This document shows, piece after piece, positions 184-4,531 of a DNA stretch of 4,531 bases. The DNA is taken from the IMG/VR virus record IMGVR_UViG_2706794682_000007; one strand, 5' to 3'. The DNA is from a virus. Its lineage: Duplodnaviria > Heunggongvirae > Uroviricota > Caudoviricetes. The first letter of the stretch is position 1. Each line of letters starts with the position of its first letter. A model generated the notes under the pieces. The model ran no database searches. It was not told the DNA's origin and was given only the letters and a program-made list of their open reading frames with translations. A program made the position numbers and the translations under genes.

Positions 184-441
184 TTGAACAACCAGACAAT
201 GACTTTTACCCCTGAACAATTGCGTAAACACGCGCAGGAAATGCTGCGTCATGCTGAACAACTCGAAAAAACGGGCATAACAAAAGACGCTATCCGTAAA
301 GATATGGTACCCGCGCTTCGGGAACTGATGCAGGCGAAGCATCGCGCACAGAAAGCAGTAGATGAGCTGGTGGACTGTGTGGCAGAGCTGGAAACCAGAG
401 TCGGAAAGTTTGAAAAACTGGTGCAGGAGGTGCTGCGCTGA
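184..441 (+). CDS. hypothetical phage nin-region protein (85 aa), helical and charged
   Basis: ORF with TTG start at 184 preceded by GGAG (174-177); alternative ATG at 199. Its TGA stop overlaps the rusA ATG in an ATGA junction at 438-443, indicating translational coupling. Position immediately upstream of rusA matches nin-region organisation of lambdoid phages. No family recognised. Confidence 0.55.
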   Translation: MNNQTMTFTPEQLRKHAQEMLRHAEQLEKTGITKDAIRKDMVPALRELMQAKHRAQKAVDELVDCVAELETRVGKFEKLVQEVLR

Positions 442-815
442 TGCGCCATGAGTTTATTTTACCTTATCCGCCGACGGTGAATACTTACTGGCGACGTCGT
501 GACAACACATATTTTGTATCAAAAGCCGGTGAGCGTTATCGCCGGGATGTGGCGCTTATTGTCCGTCAGCAGCGACTGAAATTAAGCCTGTCCGGAAGAC
601 TGGCGATAAAGATTATTGCAGAGCCACCGGATAAGCGCCGTCGTGACCTGGACAATATCCTGAAAGCACCACTGGATGCACTGACACATGCGGGAGTGTT
701 AATGGACGATGAGCAGTTTGATGAAATCAATATCGTTCGTGGTCAGCCAGTATCTGGTGGACGTCTGGGGGTGAAGATTTACCCCATAATGCATGAAGAG
801 CAGGTCAAAAAATGA
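441..815 (+). CDS. rusA: RusA-family Holliday junction resolvase (crossover junction endodeoxyribonuclease)
   Basis: 124-aa product is of RusA size and contains ...RRRDLDNILKAPLDALTHAGVLMDDEQ..., matching the catalytic acidic cluster of E. coli RusA (RRRDLDN...DAL...DD) as I recall it. AGGAGG at 425-430 lies 10 nt upstream of ATG 441. Stop overlaps the next gene's ATG at 812-815 (ATGA). Confidence 0.9.
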   Translation: MRHEFILPYPPTVNTYWRRRDNTYFVSKAGERYRRDVALIVRQQRLKLSLSGRLAIKIIAEPPDKRRRDLDNILKAPLDALTHAGVLMDDEQFDEINIVRGQPVSGGRLGVKIYPIMHEEQVKK

Positions 816-1526
816 AACTGGAAGATTTACCGAAATACTACTCCCCAAAATCCCCTTGCCTGACCGATGCATCGGCCTCAACGTCAAAAGATGCGCTGAG
901 TATCACTGATGTGATGGCCGCGCAGGGCATGACACAGAATCGGGCTGAGATGGGGTTTTCTGCGTTCCTGGGGAAAATGGGCATCAGTATGAATGACAGG
1001 GCGCGGGCAACAGAATTACTGGCAGATTATGCACTCAGTCGGTGCGATCGTGTGGCGGCGTTGAGAAAACTTCCGGCAGAAATAAAACCGGTAGTGATGC
1101 GCATTATGGCTTCGTACGCTTTTGAGGATTATGCCCGCAGCGCAGCGAGTAAAAAGCANNNNNNNNNNNNNNNNNNNNNNNNNNNNNNNNNNNNNNNNNN
1201 NNNNNNNNNNNNNNNNNNNNNNNNNNNNNNNNNNNNNNNNNNNNNNNNNNNNNNNNNNNNNNNNNNNNNNNNNNNNNNNNNNNNNNNNNNNNNNNNNNNN
1301 NNNNNNNNNNNNNNNNNNNNNNNNNNNNNNNNNNNNNNNNNNNNNNNNNNNNNNNNNNNNNNNNNNNNNNNNNNNNNNNNNNNNNNNNNNNNNNNNNNNN
1401 NNNNNNAACCAGATAACACGCGCGTCATGGGAAAAAACAGTTAAGAAATTTTATGATGCGCTGGTGACCCGGTTTGATATTGAAGAAGCATGGGCTGAGC
1501 GGCAGTTAAAAAAGGTAACTAGGTAA
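812..1526 (+). CDS. Q: lambda-type late antiterminator Q, interrupted by a 248-nt N-run
   Basis: N-terminal part (812-1158) MKLEDLPKYYSPKSPCLTD...DVMAAQGM... parallels lambda Q (MRLESVAKFHSPKSPMMSD...DVMAAMGM..., from memory). C-terminal part (1407-1526, ends TAA 1524-1526) ...WEKTVKKFYDALV...VTR parallels the lambda Q C-terminus (...WSRTVKPLYDALV...VTR). The two parts are in different frames relative to window coordinates, so the N-run is either not true length or hides a frameshift. A lambda-like PR'/qut lies immediately downstream. Confidence 0.8.
1159..1406. other. run of 248 N (assembly gap or masked sequence) inside the Q gene
   Basis: Directly visible run of n characters. All ORF-track residues shown as X derive from it. 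Confidence 0.99.
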
Positions 1527-1531
1527 CAAGG

Positions 1532-1571
1532 TTGATTTTTCCGGAATCTGTGGTAAATTCGTTATAACGAT
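1532..1571 (+). promoter_or_regulatory. PR'-like late promoter with qut-type pause element
   Basis: -35 ttgatt (1532-1537), 16-nt spacer, TGn-extended -10 taaatt (1554-1559), predicted start near 1566, then the -10-like element aacgat (1566-1571) followed by ggg. The stretch ggtaaatt...aacgatggg closely mirrors lambda PR' (GGTAAATTTGACTCAACGATGGG, from memory), where sigma70 re-binding to AACGAT causes the +16/+17 pause at which Q loads. Confidence 0.7.
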
Positions 1572-1607
1572 GGGCGTTTTATGCCTGACGTTAGAAGAGT
1601 TTCTACA

Positions 1608-1630
1608 ACCCGCCGCCGAGCGGGTTTTTT
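1608..1630 (+). terminator. intrinsic terminator, tR'-like
   Basis: Stem acccgc (1608-1613) / gcgggt (1620-1625) with loop cgccga, followed by a T-run through 1630. Lies about 45-65 nt downstream of the predicted PR' start, so would release a short 6S-like leader RNA in the absence of Q. Confidence 0.75.
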
Positions 1631-1750
1631 ATGACTGAAATCGCGTCAGTACAGTAAACGCGCTGGTGGCGGTGAATACCTGTCTTTCAGCTTGCTGGCT
1701 TTTTCGACAAGAGTTATTGGTGTGTCACGTTAACCGGAAAAGGAAAAGAC

Positions 1751-1948
1751 ATGCTAAAACAGCAGGATATGACAGAAACCGCCAGAGTGGTGTTTAATGA
1801 ATTAAGCGTTACCGAACCGGCGACAGTCGGGGAGATAGCGCAGAATACTTACCTTTCACGCGAACGCTGCCAGTTAATACTGACCCAGCTGGTTATGGCG
1901 GGTCTGGCAGACTATCAGTTCGGTTGTTACAGACGCCTTCCGCAGTGA
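1751..1948 (+). CDS. small helix-turn-helix protein (65 aa), first ORF of the Q-dependent late transcript
   Basis: ATG at 1751 with AAGGA SD about 8 nt upstream. Segment TVGEIAQNTYLSRERCQLILTQL has an HTH-like helix-turn-helix pattern (by eye). Codons checked by hand: both Ile codons are ATA, 2 of 5 Arg codons are AGA, plus one CTA. Confidence 0.55.
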   Translation: MLKQQDMTETARVVFNELSVTEPATVGEIAQNTYLSRERCQLILTQLVMAGLADYQFGCYRRLPQ

Positions 1949-1958
1949 AGGCTTTTTT
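1935..1958 (+). terminator. possible intrinsic terminator overlapping the stop codon of the 65-aa ORF
   Basis: Stem gccttc (1935-1940) / gaaggc (1947-1952), loop cgcagt, then tttttt (1953-1958). The TGA stop (1946-1948) lies in the hairpin. Only a 6-bp stem, so moderate strength. Confidence 0.45.
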
Positions 1959-1975
1959 ATTTGTGGTAAATGGGC

Positions 1976-2006
1976 GGCTGGTGGGTGTTAGGGGCACCCA
2001 CCAGCC
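1976..2006. repeat. GC-rich 12-bp perfect inverted repeat (stem-loop) with 7-nt loop
   Basis: ggctggtgggtg (1976-1987), loop ttagggg, cacccaccagcc (1995-2006); exact reverse complements. No T-run follows, so not a canonical terminator. Lies between the 65-aa ORF and the methyltransferase gene. Confidence 0.6.
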
Positions 2007-2047
2007 ATCTGCTCATGCGTTGGGTTCACAAGCAAACCTCAGGCCCA

Positions 2048-2066
2048 CTGCTTTGCGCAAAAGCAG
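2048..2066. promoter_or_regulatory. near-perfect palindrome ctgctttgcgcaaaagcag, candidate operator
   Basis: ctgcttt (2048-2054), gcgc centre, aaaagcag (2059-2066); 7-bp arms complementary with one extra A. Lies about 35 nt upstream of the methyltransferase ATG. Binding function is inferred only. Confidence 0.3.
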
Positions 2067-2098
2067 AATGAGCCTATCAGAGACAGGCTTAATGATCC

Positions 2099-3157
2099 AT
2101 GCTTAATACTGTAAAAATATCCAGTTGTGAGTTAATCAACGCCGACTGCCTGGAATTTATCCGGTCGTTACCCGAAAATTCTGTTGACCTGATAGTCACG
2201 GACCCGCCGTACTTTAAAGTGAAGCCTGAGGGCTGGGATAACCAGTGGAAGGGCGACGATGATTACCTGAAGTGGCTGGACCAGTGTCTGGCGCAGTTCT
2301 GGCGGGTGCTGAAACCTGCCGGAAGTCTTTACCTGTTCTGTGGTCATCGCCTGGCATCTGATATCGAAATCATGATGCGTGAACGCTTCAGTGTGCTGAA
2401 CCATATTATCTGGGCGAAGCCGTCCGGACGCTGGAACGGATGCAACAAGGAAAGCCTGCGGGCGTATTTCCCCGCCACAGAGCGCATTCTGTTCGCGGAA
2501 CATTATCAGGGGCCGTATCGTCCGAAAGATGCCGGGTATGCGGCGAAGGGCAGTGCACTGAAACAGCATGTGATGGCCCCGCTGATTTCTTACTTTCGTG
2601 ATGCGCGAGCTGCCCTGGGGATAACGGCAAAACAGATTGCAGATGCCACAGGAAAGAAAAACATGGTGTCGCACTGGTTCAGTGCCGGTCAGTGGCAGTT
2701 GCCGAATGAAAGCGATTATCTGAAATTACAGGCGCTGTTTGCCCGGGTGGCAGAAGAGAAGCATCGGCGTGGTGAACTGGAAAAGCTCCACCACCAGCTG
2801 GTGGATACGTATACCTCACTGAACCGGCAGTATGCGGAGCTGCTGAGTGAATATAAACATCTGCGGCGGTATTTTGGCGTGACGGTGCAGGTGCCGTATA
2901 CCGATGTGTGGACGCATAAACCGGTGCAGTTCTATCCCGGGAAACATCCGTGCGAAAAACCGGCAGAAATGCTGCAGCAGATAATCAGCGCTAGCAGTCG
3001 TCCGGGTGACCTGATTGCAGATTTTTTCATGGGGTTGGGTTCGACAGTGAAAGCGGCACTGGCGCTCGGGCGTCGTGCAATTGGCGTTGAGCTGGAGACT
3101 GAACGTTTTGAGCAGACGGTTCGGGAAGTACAGGATTTAGTCAGCCAGAACGGATGA
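2099..3157 (+). CDS. DNA amino-methyltransferase (N6-adenine or N4-cytosine, beta-class motif order), no restriction partner in window
   Basis: 352-aa ORF. Catalytic motif IV DPPY (LIVTDPPYF) near the N-terminus and AdoMet-binding motif I FxGxGS (ADFFMGLGSTV) near the C-terminus; this IV-then-I order is typical of beta-class amino-MTases. A roughly 100-aa insertion between the motifs is a likely target-recognition region. No restriction endonuclease ORF is adjacent. Confidence 0.88.
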   Translation: MLNTVKISSCELINADCLEFIRSLPENSVDLIVTDPPYFKVKPEGWDNQWKGDDDYLKWLDQCLAQFWRVLKPAGSLYLFCGHRLASDIEIMMRERFSVLNHIIWAKPSGRWNGCNKESLRAYFPATERILFAEHYQGPYRPKDAGYAAKGSALKQHVMAPLISYFRDARAALGITAKQIADATGKKNMVSHWFSAGQWQLPNESDYLKLQALFARVAEEKHRRGELEKLHHQLVDTYTSLNRQYAELLSEYKHLRRYFGVTVQVPYTDVWTHKPVQFYPGKHPCEKPAEMLQQIISASSRPGDLIADFFMGLGSTVKAALALGRRAIGVELETERFEQTVREVQDLVSQNG

Positions 3158-3197
3158 TATTGAAGAATTAATTACGCGTCGTTATTATGCGGCTCCC

Positions 3198-3273
3198 GGC
3201 CCTTTAGCTCAGTGGTGAGAGCGAGCGACTCATAATCGCCAGGTCGCTGGTTCAAATCCAGCAAGGGCCACCA
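3198..3273 (+). tRNA. ileZ: tRNA-Ile2 type (anticodon CAT, lysidine-dependent AUA reader); by anticodon alone cannot be told from tRNA-Met
   Basis: Hand-folded cloverleaf: acceptor ggccctt/aagggcc, D-stem gctc/gagc, anticodon loop ctCATaa (anticodon 3231-3233), T-arm gctgg-ttcaaat-ccagc, discriminator a, encoded CCA 3271-3273. Nearly identical to E. coli ileX as I remember it. Gene name follows the ileZ-argN-argO trio of Stx phages. Confidence 0.88.
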
Positions 3274-3280
3274 TCACATA

Positions 3281-3357
3281 CCGCCATTAGCTCATCAGGA
3301 AAGAGCGCCAGCCTTCGAAGCTGGCTGCGCGGGGTTCAAGTCCCCGATGGCGGTCCA
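3281..3357 (+). tRNA. argN: tRNA-Arg (anticodon TCG)
   Basis: Hand-folded: acceptor ccgccat/atggcgg (C1-G72), D-stem gctc/gagc, anticodon stem ccagc/gctgg with loop ctTCGaa (anticodon 3315-3317), T-arm cgggg-ttcaagt-ccccg, discriminator t, CCA 3355-3357. Confidence 0.85.
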
Positions 3358-3370
3358 TTATCTGCATCAT

Positions 3371-3447
3371 GCGTTGTTAGCTCAGCCGGACAGAGCAATT
3401 GCCTTCTAAGCAATCGGTCACTGGTTCGAATCCAGTACAACGCGCCA
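3371..3447 (+). tRNA. argO: tRNA-Arg (anticodon TCT, AGA/AGG reader, argU-like)
   Basis: Hand-folded: acceptor gcgttgt/acaacgc, D-stem gctc/gagc, anticodon stem attgc/gcaat with loop ctTCTaa (anticodon 3405-3407), T-arm actgg-ttcgaat-ccagt, discriminator g, CCA 3445-3447. Confidence 0.9.
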
Positions 3448-3461
3448 CACTTATTTTCCCT

Positions 3462-3487
3462 GGCTCGCTTTTGCGGGCCTTTTTTTT
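3462..3487 (+). terminator. strong intrinsic terminator after the tRNA trio
   Basis: Stem ggctcgc (3462-3468) / gcgggcc (3473-3479) with one G-U pair, loop tttt, followed by eight T (3480-3487). Confidence 0.8.
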
Positions 3488-3683
3488 AAATGTCTCACAA
3501 TTCAGACGGTTGACAGTTGTCTGTTTTGCGGGGAGTTTGTTAAAAGAAACTGGCATGGTGAATCCCCCTGTGCGGAGGGGCAATCAGCGAGTAGGTATAT
3601 GGGATAATCGCGGATTCAGGTGCTGGTACTGAATTCACCGGGAGGCACCCGGCACCATGCAATGGCACATAGCGCCACTCTCC

Positions 3684-3710
3684 AGCCCCTCTCCGGAGGG
3701 GCTGTTTATA
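3684..3710 (+). terminator. GC-rich hairpin with U-rich tail at the left edge of the AT-rich island; possible terminator
   Basis: agcccctc (3684-3691), loop tccg, gaggggct (3696-3703), then gtttatattgattttg on the + strand. On the - strand no U-run follows, so it is not a canonical terminator for the convergent gene. Confidence 0.45.
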
Positions 3711-3735
3711 TTGATTTTGTCAGATGTGAGTAAAC

Positions 3736-3769
3736 TCCTTATGGACTTTGTTGTTTTAGTCCATAAGGA
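3736..3769. repeat. 12-bp perfect inverted repeat overlapping the 3' end and stop codon of the reverse-strand ORF
   Basis: tccttatggact (3736-3747), 10-nt loop ttgttgtttt, agtccataagga (3758-3769). The minus-strand stop TAA (3739-3741) lies inside the left arm. Confidence 0.6.
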
Positions 3770-4074
3770 CATATTTGCAGAGTGCAACGGTTATTAAAGC
3801 ATTCATTCAATACGTTATCTGTATTTGTAGGGCATTCCTGGCTATTTTTGATTGAATTCCAGAATGTTTTATTGAATGGTACTACGTTGTAAATGGTTAC
3901 AGGTAGCACTTTGTTATTGAGCATGATGCCTGTGTGAGTCAGTGTAAATATACTTTCAGGAGGTAAGAAAGCATCCGATTGATACCAGATTATTAATTTT
4001 ATTTTACTCCATATGACTGAAAAAGATATTCCGCATGATGGCTGGATAACTGTATCAATCACAATCCACTTCAT
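3739..4074 (-). CDS. hypothetical protein (111 aa) in an AT-rich island, opposite in orientation to the phage late operon; candidate moron
   Basis: ATG is the complement of 4072-4074, with an AAGGA SD (complement of 4081-4085) 7 nt upstream. Hand translation reproduces the ORF-track protein. 6 of 13 Ile codons are ATA and 2 of 8 Leu are CTA, unlike typical E. coli usage. Several Cys near the C-terminus, no obvious signal peptide or TM segment, no family recognised. Possible sigma70 promoter on the minus strand: -35 tttaca (complement of 4136-4141) and -10 tatact (complement of 4115-4120), spacer only 15 nt, so weak evidence. Confidence 0.55.
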
Positions 4075-4319
4075 TTAGTTTCCTTGTTTATGCCTTGCTG
4101 GTGATGTTCTGAAAAGTATAAATGATATTTTTGAATGTAAACCATAGAGCAGAATTATTTTTCTGATGTTGTTTATTGTTTATTTAAATGCAGGGTGGTT
4201 TATATCTCGTCTTGTAGTTTATCCATGCATATCTGCTTGATAATCAGGTTTTTATTTAAGGTATGGTTTTGTGTTTTTTCTGTATTACATGTCAGGTATT
4301 TTAAAGAATTATTTTTCAG

Positions 4320-4508
4320 ATGGTGGAAAGAACCATGGCATTTAAACACTATGATGTTGTCAGGGCGGCGCCGCCGTCAGATCTTGCGGAAAAGCTGACA
4401 CATAAACTGAAAGAGGGCTGGCAGCCGTTTGGTAGTCCGGTGGCCATAACCCCTTATACCCTGAGGTGTACTGGCAATAGCGGACACTACCATTTGTTCT
4501 TTTTTTAA
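4320..4508 (+). CDS. small phage protein, DUF1737-like (assignment from memory), probably first gene leading into the lysis module
   Basis: ORF from ATG 4320 (alternative ATG 4335 preceded by a purine-rich stretch ggtggaaaga) to TAA 4506-4508. The motif KHYDVV...EGWQPFG resembles small DUF1737 proteins I recall from lambdoid prophages just upstream of holin genes. G+C content rises sharply at the ORF start. All three Arg codons are AGA/AGG and the single Ile codon is ATA. Confidence 0.55.
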   Translation: MVERTMAFKHYDVVRAAPPSDLAEKLTHKLKEGWQPFGSPVAITPYTLRCTGNSGHYHLFFF

Positions 4509-4531
4509 GCAGCCATCTGATGATATTTTTC

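Follow-up and report, generated by a model that had tools for sequence, protein, structure and literature searches.

In phage Mu, the small nucleic-acid-binding protein Com activates translation of the toxic DNA-modification gene mom by remodelling a stem-loop in its messenger RNA. An arrangement of similar outline is present in the window analysed here, a stretch of 4531 bases from the viral record IMGVR_UViG_2706794682_000007, which covers the late-regulatory region of a lambdoid prophage of E. coli type. It consists of a gene for a 65-residue, predicted winged-helix protein (1751–1948), a stem-loop named P0 (1935–1958), a structured RNA leader (1969–2098) and a gene for a DNA methyltransferase of the M.EcoGII type (2099–3157), all on the plus strand. 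We favour, with moderate confidence, the interpretation that these elements form a late, tightly gated anti-restriction hypermethylation module. As in com-mom, a gene for a protein of about 60 amino acids lies directly 5′ of a late, putatively host-toxic and broadly anti-restriction DNA-modifying enzyme, the start region of which is sequestered in a conserved RNA structure. Unlike in Mu, where Com is a zinc finger, the small protein of the window is a predicted winged helix and the two genes do not overlap; the likeness is functional only, with binding of the protein to the leader being hypothetical. Mu-like prophages carry non-specific adenine methyltransferases in place of mom (PMC3299994); these are alpha-class enzymes, whereas the methyltransferase of the window is beta-class.

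The closest described relatives of the methyltransferase are M.EcoGII and M.EcoGI of E. coli O104:H4 C227-11 (PMC5778455), with which it shares about 93% identity, the beta-class motif order and a prophage origin. On its own, M.EcoGII methylates adenines whatever the surrounding DNA sequence, and it also acts on RNA in vitro; it is unexpressed in the lysogen, and its constitutive expression makes clones sick. A switch-on at induction has been proposed, and Murray et al. propose that the enzyme modifies progeny DNA against restriction (PMC5778455). Homologues from Shiga toxin-producing E. coli, with around 93% similarity, are listed as non-specific, and methylomes of the lysogens gave no motif (PMC6602927). 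M.EcoGII is widely used, in chromatin accessibility mapping, MadID and RNA methylation engineering, and its natural biology and control are barely described; neither the upstream small gene nor the conserved leader is described in the work on M.EcoGII (PMC5778455).

The methyltransferase gene of the window encodes 352 amino acids, of which residues 29–340 match the N6_N4_Mtase family PF01555 (E-value 7.9e-42, 144.1 bits against a cut-off of 26.7). The DPPY motif (motif IV; residues 35–38, bases 2201–2212) is N-terminal to the S-adenosylmethionine (SAM)-binding motif I of the FxGxG type (F-M-G-L-G-S; residues 310–315, bases 3026–3043), with the target-recognition region between the two, which is the beta-class layout of an N6-adenine methyltransferase. 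Of the 349 residues of M.EcoGII, as given in the PMC11551740 supplement, 324 are identical in the window protein, about 93% over the full length, a figure that is approximate because the supplement text was machine-read and has a few obvious errors. The window protein differs from M.EcoGII in length (352 versus 349 residues), in its C-terminal tail and in having a leucine instead of a serine at position 313. At the DNA level, the gene is 94.7% identical to that of phage 1720a-02, the second-best phage match; this phage has been named as a carrier of a very similar methyltransferase, within a very large prophage family (PMC5778455). Thousands of family members occur across the Enterobacterales. 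Judged by these comparisons, the enzyme is a member of the known and characterised M.EcoGII family, and context-independent adenine methylation and silence in the lysogen would extend to it by homology. Diffuse N6-methyladenine (6mA), and no target motif, is to be expected, because the family is not sequence-specific. An earlier reading made from the letters alone (the sequence-only reading) had correctly placed an open reading frame (ORF) for 65 amino acids and a beta-class methyltransferase behind the late promoter PR′ and its terminator tR′, at the coordinates found here. Its expectation that a methylome would disclose a target motif does not fit this family, nor does its use of the central insertion as a predictor of specificity, the family lacking a sequence context preference.

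The cassette has the order Q, tR′, small gene, about 150 nucleotides of spacer, methyltransferase and lysis genes, and is found in lambdoid phages of Escherichia, Shigella, Salmonella, Klebsiella, Citrobacter, Providencia and Morganella. When the small protein is taken as the anchor, the methyltransferase lies 138–154 nucleotides downstream in 23 of 24 genome loci from around 12 genera. When loci are located with a DNA pattern made from the spacer alone, the methyltransferase follows in all 139 testable viral contigs, and a winged-helix ORF ends 0–30 nucleotides upstream of the leader in 133 of 143 loci. With the methyltransferase as the anchor, in a sample of close relatives only (93–100% identity), the small ORF is present in 74 of 74 testable cases and the leader is located directly upstream in 79 of 80. 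The annotations of Shigella phage SfV (orf47/orf48), mEp460, 1720a-02 and Morganella IME1369_02 show Q, a terminator, the small ORF and the methyltransferase, followed by lysis genes or by the Shiga toxin genes (stx). The same cassette occupies the same place in SfV, mEp460, cdtI, phiP27 and Shiga toxin 2 (Stx2) phages, and the small protein is 94% identical to SfV orf47. Records of these phages give the small ORF no more than the names 'hypothetical' or 'TrmB family' and leave the spacer without annotation; unlike them, which have a holin gene after the methyltransferase, the window has tRNA genes, a small RNA and an IraM-like gene. In the Stx2c phages the small ORF seemed absent at the DNA level, yet a version of 50% identity is present. 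The methyltransferase family and the gene pair, annotated in many phages, are already known. Two elements appear to be undescribed in the literature searched: the conserved structured leader, including the stem-loop at its 5′ end, and the winged-helix partner, which is near-obligate. That search returned no relevant experimental work on the small ORF, SfV orf47/48 or hypermethylated virion DNA.

Sequence comparison shows the spacer to be better conserved than any other part of the cassette, either protein included: its 130 nucleotides are 83% identical in 23 distant loci, with a mean of 75.5% for the methyltransferase protein and 40% for the four-fold degenerate sites of its gene. The leader starts with hairpin P1 (1970–2016), after which a multi-helix domain is formed by bases 2022–2098. 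The closing helix of this domain, GGUCA/UGAUC in most relatives and GGUUC/GAUCC in the window, ends three bases before the AUG, and no Shine-Dalgarno sequence precedes the methyltransferase start codon. In an alignment of 37 sequences, 88.6% of the cells are paired, against 31–40% with slid partners, and double changes occur at 12 leader pairs, against 4–8 in the slid controls; none of 500 shuffles equalled the observed values. The minimum free energy corresponds to a z-score of -3.96. Because of frequent G·U pairs, the structure is specific to the plus strand, the strand of the late transcript. A scan with Rfam 15 gave only a sub-threshold match to P26 on the minus strand of the window (24 bits against 36), and nothing at the gathering score in four related loci. 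Bases 1969–2098 thus behave as a structured plus-strand RNA leader that pairs bases beside the methyltransferase start. What the sequence-only reading had treated as intergenic DNA (1949–2098) does lie between the genes, but is in fact the most conserved element present and has the behaviour of RNA. Two coding explanations were discarded: a leader peptide from the conserved ATG at 1970 is conserved neither in frame nor in length (3 to 44 codons), and the ORF that spans the spacer (1924–2106) is not conserved in relatives.

The main rival for the leader interpretation is a function of the spacer at the DNA level, as a Chi-containing recombination or anti-RecBCD site, as a favoured mosaic junction or as an internal promoter that drives the methyltransferase gene. 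The window contains six exact Chi octamers (GCTGGTGG) where 0.13 are expected (none of 200 shuffles reaches six), and one of them (1977–1984) falls within the 5′ arm of P1, which is invariant. Most phage records become similar to the window exactly at the leader start (query position 442), which is therefore a recombination boundary, and most relatives carry the extended -10-like sequence TGTGAAAAT just 5′ of P1. However, conservation covers all 130 nucleotides and not just the octamer, the pairs are kept through G·U and compensatory changes that are sensible only for a plus-strand RNA, and the structure ends exactly at the start codon. The -10-like version in the window is without the critical final T, and no promoter is called there by the scan. 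We judge a DNA-level role improbable on these grounds. In the window, the 3′ arm of P1 is the complement of the Chi octamer in its 5′ arm. The 10-mer TGTGGTAAAT of the extended -10 region of PR′ (1549–1558) is repeated at 1962–1971, just 5′ of P1; a window of 4531 bases should contain a repeat this long by chance, which makes it only a hint of an internal promoter.

Upstream of the gene pair, the layout is that of a lambdoid, Q-dependent late operon, with Q, a promoter and an intrinsic terminator in succession. The Q antiterminator gene (812–1526, plus strand; annotated as antitermination protein in E. coli genomes) matches PF03589 on both readable parts, with E-values of 7e-23 and 3e-6, bases 1159–1406 being masked as N. 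The PR′-like late promoter (1532–1559, plus strand) was read by eye as TTGATT, a 16-nucleotide spacer and an extended -10 element TGgTAAATT; 8 of 12 consensus positions are matched, under the threshold of the promoter scan, and we infer that it is PR′ from its site directly after Q and before tR′, which fits the lambdoid layout. The tR′-like intrinsic terminator (1607–1633, plus strand) was identified by the terminator scan as a hairpin with a 7-bp stem (1607–1626) followed by TTTTTT; in phage SfV, the equivalent site carries the annotation of a rho-independent terminator. It is at tR′ (query position 81) that DNA similarity to most relatives begins. The short transcript from PR′ to tR′ (1559–1633) corresponds in position to the short RNAs made from the late promoters of other lambdoid phages; its Rfam matches, to isrK (18.9 bits) and Trp_leader, are weak and sub-threshold.

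Between tR′ and the small ORF, a non-coding block CTTGCTG-N17-TAYNTGTRTGTCAC (1691–1728, plus strand) is present 23–60 nucleotides 5′ of the ORF in nearly all listed related loci across genera, with the surrounding DNA unconserved. For this block, alifold gives no consensus structure and the scan no consensus sigma-70 promoter; in many single-sequence folds, GUAUGUC from this region pairs with GACAUGC around the small-ORF start codon. The scan calls no sigma-70 promoter anywhere between tR′ and the small-ORF ATG or inside the leader, and candidate hexamers in these two places were rejected, those of the window being without the critical final T.

P0, the 5′ edge of the methyltransferase leader, was found in the terminator scan as a GCCTTC/GAAGGC hairpin (1935–1952) followed by TTTTTT. 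The stop codon of the small ORF is located at the junction of loop and 3′ arm in the window, and in the loop in most relatives. A hairpin occupies this position in 54 of 63 distinct upstream regions, compared with 26% of shuffles, with 24 different stem sequences. The sequence-only reading had described it as a terminator-like hairpin of the small ORF itself: the hairpin exists and is conserved, but it is also kept where the small ORF is deleted or exchanged for an unrelated one, and so belongs to the methyltransferase unit. The further idea that it separates lysogenic from lytic expression is unsupported as worded, because the small ORF is itself downstream of tR′, with no promoter detected between tR′ and the ATG. 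A plausible role for P0 is that of a second insulator, passable only by Q-modified polymerase.

The 65-residue protein is preceded by a Shine-Dalgarno sequence AGGA (1741–1744) and belongs to phrog_331 of PHROGs, annotated as unknown function. It has no match in NCBIfam, and its winged helix-turn-helix (HTH) matches in Pfam are all below threshold (TrmB, 18 bits, cut-off 25.6; MarR_2, 14.7 bits, cut-off 27; and DprA_WH). Homologues are found in 334 clusters from Escherichia, Shigella, Salmonella, Klebsiella, Citrobacter, Buttiauxella and others, some of which are named 'TrmB family transcriptional regulator'. The rate of non-synonymous change (dN) is 0.01–0.2 and its ratio to the synonymous rate (dN/dS) 0.03–0.2 where computable, the synonymous sites being saturated in distant relatives. 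Conservation of the ORF is thereby confirmed, and these rates indicate a real gene under purifying selection. The best AlphaFold2 model is a canonical winged helix of three helices and a beta-hairpin wing, with a predicted local distance difference test score (pLDDT) of 88.9, the mean pLDDT of the other four models being 50.7–71.4. The order of elements is H1-b-H2-H3-wing, with helices at residues 4–16, 26–33 and 37–49 and strands at 53–56 and 59–62. Foldseek superposes the model on IclR and MarR winged-helix domains with a TM-score of 0.8 and a best E-value of only 7.6e-4; the matches, of marginal E-values, are IclR and MarR N-terminal domains, the winged-helix domains of small-molecule O-methyltransferases, SelB and Z-alpha. 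Assignment of a specific function by fold search was abandoned, as only generic winged-helix matches were obtained. The N-terminus MLKQQDMT and helix 3 (RCQLILTQLVMAGL) are near-invariant across subfamilies sharing around 50% identity, a pattern in a predicted recognition helix that would match an invariant nucleic-acid target. Only two cysteines are conserved (C40 and C59), which does not allow a CCCC zinc finger.

Small proteins of DNA-binding type are also encoded 5′ of the methyltransferase in type II restriction-modification (RM) systems, where they are known as C proteins. The superficial likeness of the gene order, together with the classification of the enzyme as a Type II methyltransferase by PADLOC, is what could be said for the pair being a controller-regulated RM remnant or an epigenetic switch acting in the lysogen, as the sequence-only reading had offered as an alternative. 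C proteins, unlike the protein of the window, are Xre/HTH_3 dimers that act with a restriction gene; no HTH_3 match was obtained in Pfam at E-values up to 0.1, and the model predicts a winged helix, not an Xre-type C protein. No endonuclease ORF is present in the window or beside the pair in the annotated relatives SfV, mEp460, 1720a-02 and IME1369_02, in which its neighbours are Q, lysis genes, tRNAs or stx; the absence of a restriction partner, already remarked on from the letters, extends to more than 200 loci, which makes the remnant or controller reading unlikely. The cassette is always behind tR′ in the late operon, and the homologous enzymes, which lack a recognition site, stay silent in the lysogen. 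This explanation is largely refuted, and we hold it to be very improbable.

In the module that we favour, PR′ transcripts of the lysogen would end at tR′ and any read-through at P0, so that the harmful enzyme would remain unmade. After induction, Q-modified polymerase would pass both terminators. Translation of the methyltransferase would then be limited or timed by the leader, perhaps aided by the small winged-helix protein as a translational regulator of the Com/mom type. The enzyme would methylate adenines of the replicating phage DNA in any sequence context, and in the next host the packaged genomes would be protected from many restriction systems sensitive to adenine methylation. This agrees with the sequence-only reading, which had seen an orphan methyltransferase as the first Q-dependent late cargo, one that could protect progeny DNA; such protection is the likely role, and has also been proposed for M.EcoGII (PMC5778455). 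A fixed late-operon cassette with a partner and a leader provides a testable model of how temperate phages carry a self-harming, sequence-independent anti-restriction function, and it would account for the apparent silence of the methyltransferase gene in every lysogen methylome. As the cassette is located in the Q-to-stx interval of many Stx2 phages, the terminator and the leader are part of the Shiga toxin transcript. For the window itself, the outcome is mainly one of clarification: the gene is a known one, no motif is expected of it and the RM-remnant idea is dropped.

A more specific proposal is that the leader represents an undescribed family of cis-regulatory RNA, specific to M.EcoGII-type genes, with which the winged-helix protein forms a translational gate. 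An invariant recognition helix adjoining an invariant RNA suggests such a regulator. The small protein would bind the leader and open or lock the helix that hides the start codon, which lacks a Shine-Dalgarno sequence, so that the toxic enzyme would be made in a narrow late window only; in a variant of this proposal, the protein would also retarget the methyltransferase. We put the gate forward tentatively, as an idea more probably wrong than right.

A small winged-HTH protein of Stx phages, PNB-2, offers another precedent. It is encoded just 5′ of an MT-A70 methyltransferase, M.EcoPA8orf6770P of phage PA8, with which it co-purifies 1:1 and which it switches to 16S rRNA (PMC10810198). As in the window, the pair consists of a small winged-HTH gene and a phage gene for a 'DNA adenine methyltransferase', with a terminator upstream. 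The small protein of the cassette may likewise be a 1:1 subunit of the methyltransferase, redirecting it from bulk DNA to a preferred substrate such as rRNA, other RNA or phage DNA. M.EcoGII methylates RNA in vitro, the two genes are strictly syntenic and among the best fold matches are winged-helix domains joined to SAM-dependent methyltransferases, all of which would suit a subunit. Purified M.EcoGII is nevertheless fully active and non-specific by itself, and the genes are parted by 150 nucleotides of structured spacer and are not coupled. Moreover, the partner of PNB-2 belongs to MT-A70 and not to PF01555. The identification of the pair with the published PNB-2/M.EcoPA8 rRNA methyltransferase was rejected, this being an MT-A70 enzyme encoded at the other end of the phage genome, whereas the window gene is part of the Q-dependent late operon; it is an analogue only. 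Transcription of M.EcoPA8orf6770P on approach to stationary phase is cited as a personal communication (PMC10810198). Small-ORF and methyltransferase types are also reshuffled among loci, the lineages recombining freely, which argues against a tightly co-evolving partnership, and methyltransferases occur without the small ORF in about 7% of loci. We regard the subunit explanation as distinctly unlikely.

This reshuffling weighs on the gated module as well, as do several other points. In about 7% of the leader-bearing loci, the winged-helix gene is absent or another small ORF is in its place while the leader is kept, so that the leader is not strictly dependent on that protein. Three such loci (L045, L114 and L129) have an unrelated ORF for 70–80 amino acids, ending in ...LVDTIGN or ...LVETITD, and retain P0, leader and methyltransferase; in two others (L072 and L103), the leader directly follows a tR′-like terminator. 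The leader structure that was tested had been taken from one aligned sequence, many of its pairs are invariant, and covariation is modest because the sequence is so conserved. The part played in hypermethylating virion DNA and protecting it from restriction is inferred, and we know of no experiment showing either effect for this cassette. The net benefit is not obvious either, since non-specific 6mA is also a target of 6mA-dependent type IV enzymes. Finally, the copy in the window may be inactivated or weakened by its leucine 313.

Residue 313 (codon TTG, 3035–3037) is located between the two glycines of SAM-binding motif I. Serine stands at this place in each of the 118 family representatives and in 79 of the 80 close viral relatives, the only further leucine being that of a viral contig whose protein is 100% identical. 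The invariant residues of the M.EcoGII family are therefore not all intact in the window. That the cassette is, in this genome, a decaying passenger of a defective prophage with an inactive methyltransferase would agree with this substitution, with the mosaic make-up of both window ends, the matches to the closest E. coli genomes spanning only about 440–4464, and with the IraM-like gene in the slot that stx has in Stx phages. On the other hand, the methyltransferase ORF is of full length, with no frameshift or stop codon, the other invariant residues are all retained, as are the other positions of at least 95% consensus except G197, and the variable positions of FxGxG tolerate many residues across methyltransferases. 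The small ORF and the leader are intact. Decay is an unlikely explanation, to which we nonetheless give some weight.

The genes around the cassette complete the picture of a late region. At the left end, an ORF for an 85-residue coiled-coil protein precedes the RusA gene (441–815; Pfam profile match), which is followed by Q. Downstream of the methyltransferase, the next cargo of the late transcript is a set of three tRNA genes (CAT, Arg-TCG and Arg-TCT; 3198–3447, plus strand), found by ARAGORN and by the Rfam tRNA model. They are the counterpart of ileZ-argN-argO, a cluster that Stx2 phage annotations contain, with the CAT tRNA given as tRNA-Ile. Right after the cluster, within the late transcript, bases 3524–3713 strongly match the small RNA family STnc100 (133.6 bits, gathering score 47), with a terminator end at 3683–3704. 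The IraM-like anti-adapter gene is on the minus strand (3739–4074; NCBIfam PRK09919, 158 bits); in one related locus (L019), the small ORF is followed by an IraM-like gene, with no methyltransferase. The last ORF (4320–4508) is of the DUF1737 type, with an unusual C-terminus. About 528 complete E. coli genomes contain at least 80% of the stretch at 96–97% identity, and among phage records those of Stx2 phages, 1720a-02 and phiP27 come closest. The left 440 bases (1–440) and the last 67 or so (4465–4531) derive from different mosaic segments.

Apart from the octamer in the 5′ arm of P1, Chi sites are located at 366–373, 1662–1669 and 2797–2804 on the plus strand and at 1998–2005 and 2791–2798 on the minus strand. 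The late-transcript strand thus holds four of the six; in lambda genetics, it is in this orientation that Chi acts against RecBCD coming in from the cos end. Two of the octamers overlap as a palindrome within the methyltransferase gene.

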